A stretch of DNA of 64,000 nucleotides from an uncultured delta proteobacterium (GTDB taxonomy: Bacteria > Desulfobacterota > Binatia > UBA9968): NCBI GenBank assembly GCA_963755715.1, contig CAVWLW010000001.1:64001-128000 (forward strand), read 5' to 3'. Under the pieces are notes generated by a model. It was not told where the DNA came from. It did no database searches and saw only the letters and a program-made list of their open reading frames with translations. The stretch's first letter is position 1; each line of letters opens with the position of its first letter. Shown one piece after another: positions 18,454-52,831 of the stretch. A program made the position numbers and the translations under genes.

Positions 18454-19163
18454 GTGCAAAAACTCTTTACCGCAGTTAAATATTTGACGATTTGGCGCAA
18501 TTTTGCCGCCGTTCAGGCGATCTCCGGCAGCGCTCGGCGCATCAATGATCTATTTTCCGGTGATTGGCTTGGCATTGGGACTCTTTCTTGCGCTGATCAA
18601 TTACTTGCTCGCACCGTATCTGGCTCCGGAAATCCTCAGCATGATTCTGATTACCGCGTTGGTCGTCCTGACTGGCGGCAACCACCTCACCGCGCTCAAA
18701 AATAGTTTTGCCGCCGGCGCAGTTGGGACATCGGCGAAAAAAGACGACTGCGGCGAAACGCTGGGATTTATCGCGATCGTTCTGGTGATTTTATTCAAAG
18801 CCGCTGCCGTCGACAGCATGGATGAAAAGCTGTCTTTCAGCTTGTTGCTGGCCCCGGTTCTCGCGCGCTGGGGAGTACTGATCTTCGTTTACGGTTATCA
18901 AGATCGCTGCGATGAAATCTTGCGGCCTTCTGCCGAGCAGGTGAAATTTTGGCATCTCATGTTAACGACGTTAGGCACTCTGGCGCTGGGTTTCTATGGC
19001 TTGGGCAAGCGCGGATTCTGGATCGCTCTCGCGCTTTCGCTTTTTGTTTTGTCGGCGAGAAGTCTGCTGTGTCGTCTCCGTGCGAATCTTACCGTCCCAC
19101 GATCTCGGCGCCATGATCGAGCTCGGCGAAACGCTCAGCCTCATCCTGCTCGCCTCGCTGTGA
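18454..19163 (+). CDS. Divergent CobS-like membrane protein lacking conserved acidic motifs (two frameshifts)
   Basis: AVKYLTIW, YFPVIGLALG, LTGGNHL, LLAPVLARW and LGAMIELGE align to CobS; frameshifts near 18520 and 19095. Confidence 0.7.
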
Positions 19164-19187
19164 ACAACGCCGAATCGTTTCGTCGCA

Positions 19188-20064
19188 ATGGAAATTTTTA
19201 CAGCCGCTCGCGCCCGTCATTCCGGTTTTTCTGTTGATCGCCGCCGGATTTGTTTTTGCCCATTGGAAAAAAATAAACCTGACTTCGGTGACCGAGATCA
19301 TCGTTTATTTGGGCACGCCTTCGTTGGTATTTAGCTCGCTTGCCGGAAAACCGCTCTTCGCCACTGATATAGCCGTGCTTTCGGCCGGCATCCTGCTGAT
19401 TTTCGCCATTGTCGGTTTTTTTATACGGTTTTATTTTTTTGTTTCCGGTTTCAGCTCGCGCGGCTTTGCCTTGCCGACTTTGTTCATGAATGCCGGCAAC
19501 ATGGGTATTCCATTAGCGTTGTTCGCCTTCGGTCAAGCCGGTCTGCAACGCGCGACGCTGATGTTTGTGATCATCACTTTTCTGCAATATTCGCTGGGAA
19601 TTTATATTTTAAACGGCCGCAGCAACTGGACTGAAATATTTCGTCTGCCGTTGATTTATGCGGCGCTCGCCGGCCTGTCCGTAAATCTCGCACAAATCAG
19701 TCTGCCCGAAGTATTGCTGCGGCCGATCATTATGCTCGGGCAAGCCACAATTCCGATCATGCTGATCAGCTTGGGCTACCGCTTGCATGAGGTCGAATCC
19801 CTCCAGTGGGGCCACGCTCTGGGCGGTGCGCTGGCACGCATTGGTGGCGGCTTTGCTGCCGCGAACTTAGCGGTGCATTTGATCGGCGCCGAAGGCGTTA
19901 ACCGTCAAGTCCTGCTTCTCTACGGCGCCCTGCCGGCAGCCGTCGTCAACTTCGTTCTAACCGAAAAGTATCGACAGGATCCCGCGCTGGCGGCATCAAT
20001 CGTCGTGATCAGCACGTTCATTTCGATTTTTACCATTCCGGTCGTCTTCTGGCTGATACTTTAG
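19188..20064 (+). CDS. AEC-family (auxin efflux carrier-like) transporter; frameshift near start
   Basis: PVFLLIAAG, FMNAGNMGIPL, IPIMLISLG, LPAAVVNF. Confidence 0.88.
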
Positions 20065-20159
20065 CGCTGGAGTGTTGCTTGAATCGGACGCTTTAGCGCA
20101 AAACAAAATAGAAGCCTTGACAGCTTAGATCGCTCGTTGTAATTTCCGCCTACATTTTG

Positions 20160-20352
20160 TTCACAGCTCTGGGTTCCTAGGGAAGTCCGGTGTAAATCCG
20201 GCGCGGTCCCGCCACTGTGATGGCTACGAAAGCCGCAAGACAGCCACTGTCCTGAGTCAAGCGAAGGATGGGAAGGCGCGGCGAGTAGAAAAAAGCCTAA
20301 GTCAGGAAACCTGCCCAGAGTCGTTTTACCGGCCTCTCCGGAGAAGAGAGAA
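20160..20352 (+). promoter_or_regulatory. Cobalamin riboswitch 1 (AdoCbl class) upstream of tonB
   Basis: aGGGAA-ccGGTG.AAATCCgg-GCgg.CCCGCCACTGT...GCCACTG...GGGAAGGC...B12 box AGTCAGGAAACCTGCC; P1 ctctggg/cccagag. Confidence 0.93.
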
Positions 20353-20401: not shown

Positions 20402-21178
20402 ATGAGATTGGCCTCTTTCTTTTTGATATCCGTGACTCTGCACGCGCTTGCGCTGGTCTATCCGGTTTCGTTTGCAGACCCGAAACAGGCCCAGCTTATT
20501 CGGGTGATGATTCTGCCGGTAGAGCACGAGACGTCCGGCGCCAACGGGCAAGACGGCGGTAGCGGAAGTCGTGCTTCACGCGCCGGCGCCAAAGCGCCCG
20601 GACACGCAGCGCGCGCCCTTCAAAGTCTCGTTCAATCAAACCAGACCGGCAGCCCAGAGCCGCGACCTCAATTTGGCGAAGCGCCAATAGATTTAAACGA
20701 AAACAACAGCGCTGCGCTCGTTTTTGTACCGTCAAAATCTGGCGAGGCCGACGGCGCGGCAAAAATTCCTTTAGCGGGCGATGACGGCAATGGCTCCGAC
20801 AAGGGTGCGATCGGAAACGGCGCGAATGGATTCGGATCATCTGGCAGCGGTGCGGGACTCGGCAACGGTCAAGGTTCATCGGGGAATGGCGCCGTTTTGA
20901 TTCAAGCGCGCTATAGCGAAACGCCCAAACCGGTTTACCCGGAGAGCGCTCGAAGCGAGGGCCGTGAAGGGCAGGTAATTCTGCGCGTTCTGGTTGACGA
21001 TCAAGGTCGATCGAAACATGTGGAGATCAACCGCAGCTCCGGCAGCGAAGCGTTGGACCGAGCCGCCGCTGAAGCGATCAAGCGGTGGCGATTTATCCCG
21101 GCGCGCTACGGTGACAAGGCCGTTGAAAGTTGGATTCGCATTCCCATCGAGTTTCGCCTCGCCGACGCGAAACCTTAG
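20402..21178 (+). CDS. tonB: Energy transducer TonB
   Basis: N-terminal TM with SxxLH; C-terminal PVYPESARSEGREGQV...SSGSEALDRAA...WRFIPA. Confidence 0.9.
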   Translation: MRLASFFLISVTLHALALVYPVSFADPKQAQLIRVMILPVEHETSGANGQDGGSGSRASRAGAKAPGHAARALQSLVQSNQTGSPEPRPQFGEAPIDLNENNSAALVFVPSKSGEADGAAKIPLAGDDGNGSDKGAIGNGANGFGSSGSGAGLGNGQGSSGNGAVLIQARYSETPKPVYPESARSEGREGQVILRVLVDDQGRSKHVEINRSSGSEALDRAAAEAIKRWRFIPARYGDKAVESWIRIPIEFRLADAKP

Positions 21179-21245
21179 GAAATTTTTTAGGAGGTCATCA
21201 AGGCAAGTATTATTAACCGCAGACGGATGTAAGGGAATGGGGTGA

Positions 21246-21325
21246 CTCCGAAAAGGATAAAGGCGGAAGGCAAAAGGATAAATGAAAGTTTTATCCTTTA
21301 GCCCTTATCCTTTAGCCTTTCCGAG
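21246..21325. repeat. 7-nt-period palindromic repeat (AAGGATA / TTATCCT units) inside riboswitch loop L4
   Basis: aaggata aaggcgg aaggcaa aaggata ... ttatcct ttagccc ttatcct ttagcct. Confidence 0.8.
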
Positions 21326-21424
21326 AATTCCCCTGCTGCCCCGCAACTGTAGGAGCCACGAAAGCCGCACGAATAGCCACTGTCCTCGGCCCGAGCGACG
21401 GATGGGAAGGCGCGGCGAGTAGGT

Positions 21425-21505
21425 AAAATCGTGATCGTCACTCGTGATCGTGTTCATTGGAAGGAATTTCCGAGCACGAGACACAGGCGAGAACACGAAC
21501 TAGAC
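21425..21505. repeat. ~6-nt-period palindromic repeat (ATCGTG / CACGAG units) inside riboswitch 2
   Basis: atcgtg atcgtc actcgtg atcgtg ... gagcac gagacac aggcgagaacacgaac. Confidence 0.65.
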
Positions 21506-21571
21506 GCTCGAGCCAGGAGACCTGTCCATCTGTTTTCAACATTCCCCTTTCGCGGGAAAAGGAGAGGTTTT

Positions 21572-23487
21572 ATGGTTTTCTTCTGTGTTCTTCTATTTTT
21601 TATTTTGTTTCCAAGCTTTTCCCAGGGCGCGGACCCTGCGCCAGAACAAAGTCTTCCTCCGGTCGTTGTGACGGCCACACGCACGGAAGTTCCCCTCAAT
21701 CAGCTCACAACATCTCTGACCGTAATCACGAGTGAGGAAATTCGCGAGCGGCAAGCGGAACTCGTATCGGAGGTCCTGCGCGACGTCGCTGGCGTCAATG
21801 TCGTTCAAACAGGCTCCATGGGAACGGCCACTTCCGTTTTCATTCGTGGCTCCGACATCAAATCAGGTGTTGGTTTTGGTCGACGGTGTTGAAATAAACA
21901 GCACGACCACGGGTGCCTACGACTTCGCTAACCTGACCACCGAAAGCGTCGAGCGCATCGAAGTCCTCCGCGGCGCCGGTGGAACTCTTTACGGCTCGCA
22001 AGCCATCGGCGGCGTGATCAATATTATTACCAAAAGAGGACAGGGGCCGTTGGATGTGGGGGTATCCGCGCAGGGCGGCAACGGTTGGACCAACCGTCAA
22101 GTCGCAACCCTGAGAGGCGGCCTGGGTAAACTCGGCTATGCGTTCAGCGTAGGCCATATCGGGAGTCAAGGCTTCAGGAGCGTCAACGATGATTATCGCA
22201 ACCTCTCGACGTCGGCGCGGCTGGACTATCAACTGACAGAGAATGCCAGCCTCAAGGGTATCTTCCACTATATCAACAGCGATGCGGGGCTGTTCAATAA
22301 CAACAACTTCGCCTCCACACCCGACCCCAACGCTCGCCAGGCCACGACTCAATACGTGGGCAAACTCGAGTGGGAACAAAAAATCCTGGCGAACTGGGAT
22401 TACCGAATTTCCGGATCCATCTTCAAAGAGCATGACAAGTTTAGCGACGATGTCGATTCCTGCGTCTCTTTCGGCTTCCCCTGCGATTCGCGCACCCGCG
22501 ATTTCTTTCGCCCGCAAATCGTTAGCGGGGAATTTCAAACCAACTACCGCCTTGAGGATTGGAGCACTGCGACTTTTGGCGTCCAATACAATCGGAGGTC
22601 GGCCAGCACCAACGGTGGAATCGACGAAACCATCGGCAATGTCGGCTACTACCTGCAACAACAATTTCAGTTTCTCGATCGCAGCCTGATCATGATCCCG
22701 GGAATCCGATCTGGACGATAATCAACAGTTCGGCACCGCATGGACGCCATCGTTTTCCGCGGCCTATTTATTCAAGGAGATCGGCACCAAGTTGAAGGGT
22801 GGCTATGCCAGCGGTTTTAGAGCGCCGTCGTTGAACGAGCTGTTTTTCCCTGCGGGCTTCGGTTGCCCGGCCTTCGGTAATCCGAACCTAGGTCCGGAGA
22901 AAAGTTGGGAAATAAACTTCGGCGTCGAGCAGAGCCTCCTCGCCGAGCGACTTACAATGGGTGCGAACTATTTTCATCGCGAGGTGAAGGACCTCATCGA
23001 AGGGAGACCCATTCCCGGAGACCCATTTGGTTGTTTCCGCGCCGAGAATGTGGGGCGCGCACGTTTCGACGGCGTCGAGTTGACTTTGGGAATAAAGCTC
23101 TTCGAGGGCCTCACCTTGAACGCCAATTACACCTATCTCGACTGGGATACTGCGGATGGGACACTGCCGCGCCGGCCGCGCAATAGTGGGAACGTGATCC
23201 TGAATTATCTGCAGGATGCTTTGAACGTCAACCTCATCGTCAATATCGTCGGCCTCCGCGATGATTTTCGTGCCGCCTCGCCGTTTGGCAACACGGTCAC
23301 GGCCGGTTATGGGATTGTTGATCTGGCTTCATCCTATAGGCTTCCCTGGCGAAATTCCCTCGTAAAGGAAATAAGCCTGATTGGCAGGATCCAAAACCTG
23401 TTTAATAAAAGGTACGATCAAGCGGACGGGTTCCGCGCCCCGCCGTTAAACTTTTTGCTCGGCTTTCGCACTACTTTCGGGAGCTAG
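21572..23487 (+). CDS. btuB: TonB-dependent cobalamin receptor BtuB-like (frameshifts at ~21860 and ~22710)
   Basis: VVVTATRTE TonB box, plug motif VERIEVLRGAGGTLYGSQAIGGVINIITK, GFRAPSLNEL, NLFNKRY; directly below a B12 riboswitch. Confidence 0.88.
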
Positions 23488-23536: not shown

Positions 23537-23857
23537 TTGGAAAAACAGATGATCGAAGTCACGGTGACCATCGACTTTGGACCGGCTGGTAAGCAACCGT
23601 TCGAAGCGATGGTCACTGTTTCCGAAAAGAGCACGGTACTCGAAGTCTTGTTGGAACGGCTGCCGGTAACGACGGCCCCTCGATATGGGATGGAACATTT
23701 CGTCGAGGAAATTGATGGAGTCAGAAACGACTTTGCCGCCGACTGCGGTTGGCGCTTTCAGGTTAACGGCCGTGGATCGAATGTTCCTGCCGAGCGCTAT
23801 CTCGTAAAGAACGGTGACTGGATCAAATGGCTCTACGTCGCCGGCTCCTGCTCTTAA
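23537..23857 (+). CDS. DUF4430 / transcobalamin C-terminal-like putative cobalamin-binding protein
   Basis: TVLEVL...FVEEIDGVRN...GWRFQVNG...VKNGDWIKWLY pattern. Confidence 0.8.
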   Translation: MEKQMIEVTVTIDFGPAGKQPFEAMVTVSEKSTVLEVLLERLPVTTAPRYGMEHFVEEIDGVRNDFAADCGWRFQVNGRGSNVPAERYLVKNGDWIKWLYVAGSCS

Positions 23858-23872
23858 ACGCGAATAACAGAA

Positions 23873-25473
23873 GTGAACGCACCCCGACCCAAAAATGCTC
23901 TGATGATCCTCGGCACGGCTTCCCACGTCGGCAAATCGATTCATTACGGCAGGCCTTGGGCGCGTGTTCGCCGACGACGGCTATCGGGTCGCGCCTTTCA
24001 AGGCGCAGAACATGTCGCTCAATTCCGCCGCAACATCCGGACGGTGGCGAGATCGGTCGTGCGCAAGCGCTGCAAGCCGAAGCCTGCCGCGCCATGCCTT
24101 GCGTGGAAATGAATCCCGTCCTGCTCAAACCTTCGACAGACACCGGCGCCCAGGTGATTTTATTGGGAAAGATCTGGGGACAAGTCACGGCGTCGGATTA
24201 TCACACCCGGCGCGTCGAGCAGCTTTTTCCCGAGGTGCTCGCCGCCTATAAACGGCTATACGCTAATTATGACCTAATCTTGCTCGAAGGCGCCGGTTCG
24301 CCGGCGGAGATCAATCTGCGCGAGCACGATATCGTCAACATGCGCATGGCCCATGCCGCCGATGCCGCCTGCTTGCTGGTCGGCGATATCGATCGCGGCG
24401 GCGTTTTCGCATCCCTACTTGGCACGCTGGAATTGCTCGAACCCGAAGATCGCGCCCGCATTCGCGGCTTTATCATCAACAAATTTCGCGGCGATGAATC
24501 GCTGCTGCGGCCGGGCGTCGCGATGATCGAGCAACCGCCTTGGCTTGCCTTGCGTCGGCGTGGTGCCCTTTCTTCCGATCTCGGCCTCGACGAAGAGGAC
24601 GGCGTCGCCTTGGAAGATCGCGCTTCAGCGGCGCGCCGCTGGAGAAATTTGGAATCGGGACCGGCGCGCGCGCTGCGCATCGGCGTCATCGCGCTGCCGC
24701 ACATGGCGAATTTTACCGACTTCGACGCGTTGGCACTGGAGCCTTCGATCTCGCTCGCATTCCTCGAAGCGCCCGAAGAAATGGCCGCGGCTGATCTACT
24801 CATTTTACCCGGCACCAAGCAGACACTTGACGATCTACACTGGCTTGAGCGGCGCGGTTTTGCCCAAGAGCTTCGGCGGCTCACTGAAACCGGTGTCCCG
24901 ATCGTCGGCATCTGCGGCGGCTTTCAGATGCTTGGAGTTTCCATCGATGATCCTCAGGGTATCGAGAATCAGGAGGAGCCCTGTAGCCGAACGGCGCTCG
25001 GTCTTCTGCCGGTGCGAACCGTACTGCACGCCGAAAAAACCGTGCGGCGTGTGCACGGCCGCTTGCGACAAAATTTTTTCCGTAGTGGCTCACCCGAGCA
25101 AGTTGCATTTGAAGGCTACGAGATCCACGTCGGTGAAACGCTCTACGAAACCGGAGCGTTTCCGCTAACCGATATTGAGCGCCAAGAAGCAACGGAACTT
25201 GTTCCCGACGGCGCCGTCAGCAAATCAGGCCGCGTCTTTGGCACCTACGTTCACGGCTTCTTCGACAACGACGATTTTCGTCATGGGTTCATCCAAGCCG
25301 CGCGCGCCGCGGTCGATCTCGCGCCCGCGGCCTCGTACGTGAATATCAACGCGGAGCGCGACGCGCGCATCGATCGCCTGGCAGATCACCTTCGAAAATC
25401 GTTGGATATGAATCTGATCAAGAGTTGGATTGTCGATCCATCCGCTGCGACAGTAGAAAAGTGGCGAGCTTAA
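23873..25473 (+). CDS. cbiP: Cobyric acid synthase CbiP/CobQ (several frameshifts)
   Basis: [56 protein letters not shown]. Confidence 0.93.
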
Positions 25474-51652: not shown

Positions 51653-52831
51653 ATGCCACTAGCAACTATCGAAGCGGCGATCGCCGATATTCGCCGCGGT
51701 CAAATGATCATTCTGATGGATGATAAAGACCGCGAGAACGAAGGCGATCTCTGCATGGCTGCCGAGAAAGTCACTCCGGAAGCAATTAATTTTATGGCGA
51801 CCCATGGCCGTGGGTTGATCTGTTTGCCGCTCACCGAAGAGCGCGTCCGACAGTTGGGTATCTCGATGATGGTGTCGGACAACACCTCTCCCTTCGGCAC
51901 TGCGTTTACGGTATCGGTGGACTCCGCCACCGGCATTAGCACCGGCATTTCCGCCGCCGATCGAGCTAAGACCATTCTCGATGCAATTGCAGATGAAGCC
52001 AAACCACAGGATCTGGTTACCCCCGGCCACATATTTCCGCTGCGCGCCCGCAATGGCGGCGTCCTGGTGCGCGCGGGACAAACCGAAGGCTCGGTCGACT
52101 TGGCCCGTTTGGCGGGGCTCAAGCCGGCCGGGGTTATCTGCGAAATTATGAAAGACGACGGCACGATGGCGCGACTGCCCGACCTCATGCGCTTCGCCAA
52201 AAAGCACAAATTGAAAGTGGTGACAATCGCTGATTTGATCCAACACCGATTGAATTATGACCTTTTGGTCTACAAAGCGGCGTCCGCGCCCCTGCCGACC
52301 CGAGTTGGCGGTCTCTTCCAAGCCATCGTCTACAACACCCATGTCGATCAGAGCGAGCACCTCGCTTTGATCAAGGGCGATATTTCGCCTAAGCAAGAGA
52401 CTCTGGTGCGGGTCCACACCAAATATGTCCCCGGCGATGTCTTTGGTTTCGAATTGCTGAACACCAATGCGGTGATCCAGCGTTCCATGGAAATCATCGC
52501 CAAAGAAGGCAAGGGCGTGATTCTTTATCTGCAACCGAAGCGCAAAGGACTGCACCCGGCAATGGTCACCTACCCGAGACTGGAAGGAAAGCAGCAAAAG
52601 GAGATGAACCGCTCGTTCGTTTACCAGGCCGATTTCAAAGAATACGGCATCGGCGCGCAAATTCTGCGCGACCTAGGCGTGCGCAAAATGCGCCTGCTCA
52701 GCAATAACAAGAAACATCTGGTTGGACTGCGCGGTTACGGCTTGGAAATCACTGCCCTCGAACCAATCGCACGGGATAATCCGCTGCGCGACGCGGTTAA
52801 ACAAAAAAAGCCTAAAGCGCAAGGCGCTTGA
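51653..52831 (+). CDS. ribB: DHBP synthase RibB fused to a degenerate GTP cyclohydrolase II domain (RibBX type)
   Basis: DDKDRENEGD, TAFTVSVD, PGHIFPL, GVICEIM; the C-domain lacks the Zn-binding cysteines. Confidence 0.9.
   Translation: MPLATIEAAIADIRRGQMIILMDDKDRENEGDLCMAAEKVTPEAINFMATHGRGLICLPLTEERVRQLGISMMVSDNTSPFGTAFTVSVDSATGISTGISAADRAKTILDAIADEAKPQDLVTPGHIFPLRARNGGVLVRAGQTEGSVDLARLAGLKPAGVICEIMKDDGTMARLPDLMRFAKKHKLKVVTIADLIQHRLNYDLLVYKAASAPLPTRVGGLFQAIVYNTHVDQSEHLALIKGDISPKQETLVRVHTKYVPGDVFGFELLNTNAVIQRSMEIIAKEGKGVILYLQPKRKGLHPAMVTYPRLEGKQQKEMNRSFVYQADFKEYGIGAQILRDLGVRKMRLLSNNKKHLVGLRGYGLEITALEPIARDNPLRDAVKQKKPKAQGA

Follow-up and report, generated by a model that had tools for sequence, protein, structure and literature searches.

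Heptamer-array hairpins at the hairpin tips of a cobalamin riboswitch from a soil bacterium

The L4 loop of cobalamin riboswitches is a T-loop, a conserved module that is described as directing the global fold and docking with J6/7 or L6 (PMC6158498, PMC7367189). In the leader of a btuB-like gene of an uncultured soil bacterium, this loop is interrupted by an 80-nt palindrome made of 7-nt units, which raises the question of whether a helix at such a position is a functional part of the RNA or a repeat that the riboswitch merely carries. The window analyzed here is a 64,000-nt stretch of one contig from a genome (G000) of 7.41 Mb in 76 contigs. An Rfam cmscan over the window yielded two RF00174 aptamers, of which the second carries the palindrome, in the following context:

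20154-20332, + strand: cobalamin riboswitch 1 (tonB leader), with a compact L4 (RF00174, 98.3 bits)
20402-21178, + strand: tonB-like gene (PF03544 TonB_C, 84 bits)
21208-21543, + strand: cobalamin riboswitch 2 (btuB-like leader), with two heptamer hairpins (RF00174, 62.6 bits, full model 1-189)
21239-21245, + strand: P4 5' strand GGGG (21239-21242) and T-loop nucleotides 1-3, UGA (U21243, G21244, A21245), from model alignment and fold
21246-21325, + strand: palindromic heptamer array of the AAGGNNR family between T-loop nucleotides 3 and 4, without a gene, from alignment and fold
21326-21333, + strand: T-loop nucleotides 4-7, AAUU (A21326, A21327, U21328, U21329), and P4 3' strand CCCC (21330-21333), from model alignment
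21425-21505, + strand: second heptamer hairpin, TCGTGNT family, on the 3' strand of the P6 extension ("site 3"), from a model-alignment insertion and fold
21546-21567, + strand: candidate P13/L13 hairpin with a GGG loop, its 3' strand overlapping the ribosome-binding site, read from the sequence
21572-23487, + strand: btuB-like TonB-dependent receptor (Plug and beta-barrel) in three frames (21572-21892, 21732-22721, 22792-23487)

Riboswitch 2 scores above the RF00174 gathering threshold (62.6 vs 31.5 bits) and aligns over 189 of 189 model positions; the alignment is interrupted by 80 inserted nucleotides, which fall between consensus positions 3 and 4 of the L4 loop. The 7-nt loop is split as UGA^AAUU with 7/7 loop nucleotides retained, and the insert is closed by CUC...GAG. 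A sequence-only reading of this DNA had placed an insert with this closure inside L4 at 21246-21325, with intact flanking nucleotides, and model alignment and fold now confirm it. The same reading had described arrays of AAGGATA and TTATCCT, which holds in part: two AAGGATA words lie on the 5' arm and two TATCCTT words on the 3' arm, along with a 14-nt tandem pair (21291-21318), but the arms are degenerate 7-nt units (RAAGGNN / NNCCTTY) and not perfect heptamers. For positions 21239-21333, the predicted fold consists of P4, 3 nt, a single long imperfect hairpin, 4 nt, and P4 again (-36.9 kcal/mol, z -4.33; 0 of 200 shuffles equally stable), and the hairpin ends in a 7-nt apical loop, with no PF05635 open reading frame (ORF) between its arms. 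As in intervening sequences (IVSs) of rRNA, the insert is a long stem of inverted 7-nt arrays at the tip of a structured-RNA helix. In G000 and G019, the sequence of the hairpin's apical loop (UGAAAGU) would by itself pass for a T-loop signature; other species do not conserve it, and we treated the match as a coincidence.

L4 of riboswitch 2 fits the T-loop signature of U1, G2, N3, R4, and A5 plus two bulged nucleotides, although the helix between nucleotides 3 and 4 separates the five U-turn nucleotides that T-loop criteria take to be contiguous (PMC6158498, PMC12641257). Across 69 distinct filled orthologues (a count that excludes G012-like sequences, which have UAA or UGA at nucleotides 1-3), the loop was strongly conserved around the split, with U1 in 69/69, G2 in 63/69, A3 in 69/69, A4 in 66/69, and A5 in 69/69; the C or U found at position 2 in 6/69 of these sequences is unusual for T-loops. 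An interrupted five-nucleotide T-loop core is also described for L2 of the yjdF riboswitch (PMC12641257), where one extra nucleotide lies between positions 4 and 5, as opposed to a helix of ~35-145 nt between positions 3 and 4 here. According to that 2025 paper, core T-loop insertions are otherwise unobserved in biological RNAs, the single yjdF nucleotide excepted (PMC12641257).

Next, we evaluated how widely the L4 insert occurs by searching for the region in 40 relatives, 24 from the same genus and 16 from two sister families. Within the genus, 16 of 24 genomes yielded riboswitch 2, while the remaining eight lacked a match, reached a contig end, or were not fetched; from the sister families, it was fetched for 12 of 16 genomes. 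An L4 insert was found at exactly the same place in G000 and in 16/16 genus relatives with a recovered riboswitch 2 (15/15 when G005, an unpublished genome, is left aside). All 16 of these L4 regions fold as a single long hairpin, five of them with the same 3-nt/4-nt loop. The filling itself differs by species, being of the AAGG type, of an ATTTT/AAAAT type on a GC-rich basal stem, or a GC-rich stem alone (G011). In the sister families, 12/12 genomes have a compact 7-nt L4 loop. Metagenome contigs searched with a 30-nt core pattern gave at least 120 matches, and DNA was fetched for 80 of these. Among the matches listed, with insert types as we defined them and counts from word-based typing, occupancy was as follows:

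L4: 79 assessable; 3 empty (UGAAAUU), 39 AAGG, 33 ATTTT, 4 other
Site 2 (terminal loop after GCCACUG): 73 assessable; 31 compact, 4 AAGG, 29 ATTTT, 9 other, at least 5 of them GTTCAAC-type
Site 3 (as 21425-21505): 69 assessable; 57 compact, 0 AAGG, 0 ATTTT, 11 TCGTG-type, 1 other

An L4 extension was thus present in 76/79 metagenomic orthologues among the matches listed, and the empty loop UGAAAUU equals the filled loop minus the helix. Together, the site counts indicate that three hairpin tips of one riboswitch are variably occupied. Site 3 of G000 is filled by a second hairpin of ~80 nt (21425-21505) that was absent from the sequence-only reading; its 99-nt fold reaches -33.4 kcal/mol (z -3.16), it is missing from 15/16 genus relatives and shared with G022, and its TCGTGNT word family has further inverted copies in the G000 genome. 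In the sister families, L4 is compact in L022 and L023 (G025 and G027) and site 2 holds TTCGTTA-type hairpins; in G029 the type is ATTTTGG. The colonization of riboswitch tips therefore extends past one genus. Riboswitch 1 had been proposed as a natural empty-site control, together with an alignment of relatives for empty and filled sites. The alignment provides both forms; riboswitch 1, however, is a paralogue in the tonB leader, and the true empty sites are those of the 12/12 sister genomes and of 3/79 metagenomic loci among the matches listed.

We then examined the turnover of the insert on trees of ~630-970 columns from which the three variable tips had been cut out. On this flank tree, whose flanks possibly recombine themselves, grouping the inserts of the ATTTT/GC-only type in one clade was rejected by an AU test (delta lnL 496, p-AU 2e-9), and at least five changes of insert type are needed among 17 genomes; monophyly of the genus was not rejected (p 0.15). 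In an 86-row quick tree, the empty L4 forms were basal or grouped with outgroups, and the filled L194 grouped with the empty L172 and L192 with strong support. Empty (L172, L192) and filled (L194) alleles are therefore found at one site in related genomes, and L194 and L192 align as a filled/empty pair at L4 and likewise at site 2. Over ~190 nt upstream and ~400 nt downstream, L197 and L236 hardly differ, but their similarity breaks exactly at the L4 loop, and their L4 inserts are unrelated. Differences are also seen at the level of single units: unit order differs between the G000 and G017 inserts, AAGG-type inserts range from 63 to 92 nt, and the L4 extension as a whole from ~35 to ~145 nt across orthologues. 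These comparisons show that the filling has been repeatedly exchanged between arrays of the AAGG type and arrays of the ATTTT type that sit on a GC-rich stem. A target duplication, also suggested as something to look for among relatives, could not be found in unambiguous form: the pairwise alignments contained only a 2-nt GA ambiguity (L194 vs L192) and none fitting G000.

Several lines of evidence bear on whether riboswitch 2 is a working RNA in front of a working gene. The order riboswitch 1 - tonB - riboswitch 2 - receptor recurs in relatives, and the ATG of the btuB-like gene lies at 21572, 3' of the ribosome-binding site that the P13/L13 hairpin overlaps. The GGG of the P13/L13 loop could pair with the CCCC of L5, a putative arrangement that resembles the usual L5-L13 kissing-loop expression platform, and the P13/L13 stretch is conserved in L192, L194, L197, and L236. 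In soil metagenomes from at least eight studies, 73-80% of the region's sampled words were present. We compared contigs of four runs with the window for assembly support, and contigs of two soil DNA runs from different studies cross both inserts gap-free: X1 record 2 spans 21143-21535 with two differences, X3 record 27 spans 21179-21341 with one difference, and X3 record 28 covers the remainder. No joint or empty form of the inserts was seen among the contigs of the four runs. In the window, the Plug domain of the receptor is split at profile position 54/55, and at both breaks of the btuB frame (~21854-21856 and 22709-22711) the covering contigs are one base shorter than the window. This single-base difference at each break indicates that the gene is intact in the population and that the frameshifts of the window are assembly or strain indels. 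A further single-base difference from covering contigs lies at 21533, and the end of a cobS-like ORF (18503-19237) and the N-terminus of cobQ (23827-25473) also appear frame-disturbed; the frame disturbances in this region suggest indel errors in the assembly. Given the retained T-loop nucleotides and the intact btuB of other assemblies, the host RNA would seem to be under continued selection. RNA-library contigs also cross the hairpins (X16 record 22, 21180-21388, for the L4 insert; X15 record 11, 21302-21528, for the site-3 hairpin), but we did not count them as proof of transcription or cleavage because they carry no strand, ends, or level and the libraries possibly contain DNA.

Hairpins of this kind are dispersed through the genome. 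Clusters of the AAGGATA family (at least two words within 60 nt) were found at 22 places in the 7.4 Mb, 12 of them with both orientations, and a tandem-repeat scan of G000 revealed many further 7-nt word families. A strong inverted repeat accompanied 57 of 199 period-7/14/21 loci, compared with 10 of 300 random segments, and inspection of the inverted-repeat loci left ~50 true two-armed heptamer arrays from at least 10 word families. A profile search for PF05635 (23S rRNA intervening-sequence protein / Avd-like) detected three intact genes in G000, all outside rRNA:

C34:108790-109104: intact PF05635 gene
C29:15412-15726: intact PF05635 gene
C14:35855-36121: intact PF05635 gene

All three (3/3) are bracketed by inverted heptamer arrays, each with a different word, and the gene-carrying form of the same kind of repeat thus appears to be two arms around a PF05635 gene. 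A truncated PF05635 copy (C5:43-195) adjoins CACGA- and GGCAACA-type arrays. Heptanucleotide repeats of the STRR type occur in helix P12 of the RNase P RNA of heterocystous cyanobacteria; in G000, the RNase P RNA is of normal length (369 nt for a 367-position model), the 23S rRNA gene (3003 nt) contains no period-7 array, and the only cobalamin riboswitches found in the genome are the two described here. Beyond this genome, a degenerate three-unit AAGG pattern, for which we estimate a chance expectation of ~2 matches, matched at least 120 stretches of a species-representative genome collection, in MAGs assigned by their labels to more than 15 higher taxa. An inverted partner lay within 200 nt in 24 of the 80 loci with DNA among the matches listed, and in a Planctomycetaceae MAG, AAGG-type arms surround a PF05635 ORF. 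The L4 insert thus belongs, as a form without a gene, to a class of heptamer-array hairpins that is very widespread, although the sharing of words across phyla could reflect convergence instead of transfer. The counting of genome-wide copies that had been proposed therefore yields 22 word clusters and ~50 two-armed hairpins. The idea that self-folding periodic palindromes settle at tolerated tips of functional RNAs is likewise borne out, as they are dispersed and are gained, lost, and exchanged at three tips.

From these observations, we propose that the insert, a gene-less heptamer hairpin at the tip of P4 in an AdoCbl-type riboswitch that is otherwise complete, is probably a tolerated, ratchet-like passenger that would not be needed for B12 sensing. 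A hairpin would have come into the apical loop at the DNA level at about the base of the genus, either through an insertion process directed at hairpins or loops or through recombination across the conserved core of the riboswitch, and its filling would since have been replaced or recombined through the same highly conserved core. The arrays would grow, shrink, and homogenize at the DNA level, with unit slippage as the source of variation. The hairpin may be tolerated because it projects outward from the apex of the T-loop and disturbs neither the seven nucleotides of the loop nor the B12-binding core or the platform for expression control; position 3 is the exposed apex of the turn under published criteria (PMC6158498). 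Its persistence may reflect that nothing short of a precise deletion would bring back the 7-nt loop. By analogy with rRNA IVSs (PMC4990558), RNase III might cut the long stem after transcription. Near-fixation in the genus indicates that the G000 copy is an old resident with turnover of its content and not a recent insertion. As an outcome that would speak against a mobile repeat, the sequence-only reading had named a fixed extension conserved in all relatives and without other genomic copies: the extension is indeed almost fixed in the genus, but many other copies exist. The stems offer a further hint on the level at which pairing is kept. Among 1x1 stem mismatches in 60 distinct inserts, G.U was not in excess (21 G.U vs 16 A.C), so that pairing is not visibly maintained at the RNA level; this fits a DNA-level palindrome and is silent on RNA function, and the palindromy of the inserts accordingly looks like a DNA-level property, as far as mismatch counts can indicate.

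Near-fixation and invariant loop nucleotides fit a selected structural extension equally well, and the most serious alternative, which we nevertheless regard as unlikely, is that the P4 extension is a selected, lineage-specific part of the riboswitch (possibly an RNase III entry site that sets the half-life of the btuB mRNA, a platform that binds proteins, or an element acting in folding or pausing) in which only the hairpin shape is constrained and the sequence is replaceable. Such a role would agree with the presence of the extension in G000, 16/16 genus relatives, and 76/79 of the metagenomic orthologues listed, with no reversion to a compact loop within the large filled clade, and with the conservation of the CUC...GAG stem base and the loop nucleotides. 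Between G000 and G019, an A-U pair is replaced by G-C with the apical stem retained, and an rRNA IVS is described as being cleaved by RNase III at its heptamer repeats (PMC4990558). However, the sister families and three related metagenomic lineages function with a compact L4 within the same gene arrangement, and the stem varies from ~35 to ~145 nt with content unrelated between close relatives. The same repeats also lie at ~50 unrelated loci and, by presence and absence, at two other tips of this riboswitch, the mismatches lack a G.U excess, and a ratchet in which precise deletion alone restores the 7-nt loop would likewise lead to near-fixation.

Alternatively, no mobile element may be involved at all, the arrays having arisen and diversified locally as simple 7-nt repeats, seeded in a P4 hairpin that was already there, slipped during replication; their resemblance to arrays elsewhere would then be convergence. 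Unit-level differences between orthologous inserts (unit order in G000 vs G017, the 63-92 nt of the AAGG type) and the attribution of heptamer over-representation in bacteria to polymerase slippage (PMC4692102) are in line with this, but we consider it improbable as a full account, since it leaves unexplained the swap of an AAGG-type insert for an unrelated GC-stem plus ATTTT-type insert between near-identical flanks, the same composite ATTTT-type insert in lineages that are apart on the flank tree, the near-identical multi-unit arrays across many phyla, and the arrays flanking PF05635 genes. Finally, the three btuB frames and the disturbed cobS-like end and cobQ N-terminus could point to an assembly artefact or to a decaying pseudo-riboswitch before a dead btuB gene. 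This seems hardly credible for a locus whose two inserts are spanned gap-free by contigs from two studies, whose btuB breaks each come down to a single-base difference, and whose riboswitch core, matched by the full model at 62.6 bits, is conserved across the 79 metagenomic orthologues listed. A passenger hairpin with exchangeable content thus remains our preferred reading. More tentatively, and with more doubt than confidence, this reading might be extended to heptamer-array hairpins in general as pan-bacterial, tip-seeking, mobile or exchangeable DNA, gene-less relatives of S23p cassettes that would swap within the apical loops of any structured-RNA gene, here within a cobalamin riboswitch that still works although a helix separates nucleotides 3 and 4 of its L4 T-loop, a topology reported to be absent from solved RNA structures.

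Parts of this pattern have counterparts in known systems. The IVSs of 23S rRNA that carry an S23p/PF05635 ORF, such as one in helix 45, are likewise inserted at a helix tip of a structured RNA while the host RNA keeps working; the helix-45 IVS is described as having a stem of terminal inverted repeats, tandem heptamers that vary between strains, and an S23p ORF, and as being cleaved by RNase III (PMC4990558). Here, by contrast, the host is a riboswitch in an mRNA leader, this copy has no ORF, and RNase III excision is a prediction. In Nostoc, the tRNA-Leu(UAA) group I intron also has 7-nt units on both sides of its P6b stem, with unit insertions and deletions, and two repeat classes have repeatedly replaced each other there (PMC4476775), similar to the class swaps at L4. 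The present case differs from the Nostocales repeats in its phylum and host RNA, in that a conserved tertiary-contact T-loop is affected and not an already variable peripheral stem, and in its empty-site relatives and cassette-like exchange. Intergenic inverted heptamer arrays are described for Xanthomonas (GGGAATC; PMC4692102) and, as heptanucleotide-repeat families, for Geobacter metallireducens (PMC2700814), and like those of G000 they are dispersed, mostly intergenic, often convergent stem-loop pairs that vary between close species. Unlike here, these two reports place no array in a riboswitch or other structured RNA and link none to PF05635. REP/BIME elements and MITEs are also short, dispersed, hairpin-forming, and non-coding, but the present hairpins show no defined terminal inverted repeats with an unambiguous target duplication, and their arms are degenerate tandem arrays from many word families.

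The suggestion of an undescribed class of elements consequently needs to be narrowed, as heptamer arrays, heptamers in structured RNAs, and heptamers in IVSs are already in print (PMC4692102, PMC2700814, PMC4476775, PMC4990558). What is distinctive here is the split T-loop, the three colonized tips, and the clean series of empty, filled, and exchanged sites; our literature searches returned no relevant report of a heptamer or repeat insertion in a riboswitch. Overall, it appears from the comparisons above that small hairpin repeats can colonize the hairpin tips of a working regulatory RNA in a soil bacterium. For RNA structure, ~70 distinct natural sequences keep the T-loop nucleotides around the split, with empty-loop relatives as controls. 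This leaves two options: the T-loop accommodates a topology that solved structures do not show, or a tertiary docking contact can be given up despite its conservation. To our knowledge, heptamer repeats have been reported since 1990 without an explanation, and three tips that are empty, filled, or exchanged across more than 90 orthologues, along with gene-carrying PF05635 forms, offer a compact system in which to study how such repeats move. For annotation, inserts of this type cut covariance-model scores (from 98 to 63 bits here) and may hide structured RNAs.

A few additional elements were observed in the course of this work. A hairpin of ~25-30 nt with the core CTGAGC...TCGAAG is nested centrally in some ATTTT-type hairpins, whether these lie in riboswitch tips or elsewhere (L002:1253-1406, with the centre at ~1325-1355; L226, L233, and L163; and G000 C12:21487 and C8:34044), and a loose pattern of this nested hairpin matched 133 places in the genome, chance matches among them. 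A short GC-rich palindrome (GTAGGGGCG...) recurs beside heptamer arrays at C25:5765-5792 and C46:4645-4672 and is possibly a REP-like family. Elsewhere in the window, positions 51752-51853 on the - strand match the Rfam family V_AS9 ("Vibrio RNA AS9") with 60.1 bits against a threshold of 50, in what is a soil bacterium; this match probably reflects a conserved structured or coding stretch in common with the Vibrio locus.
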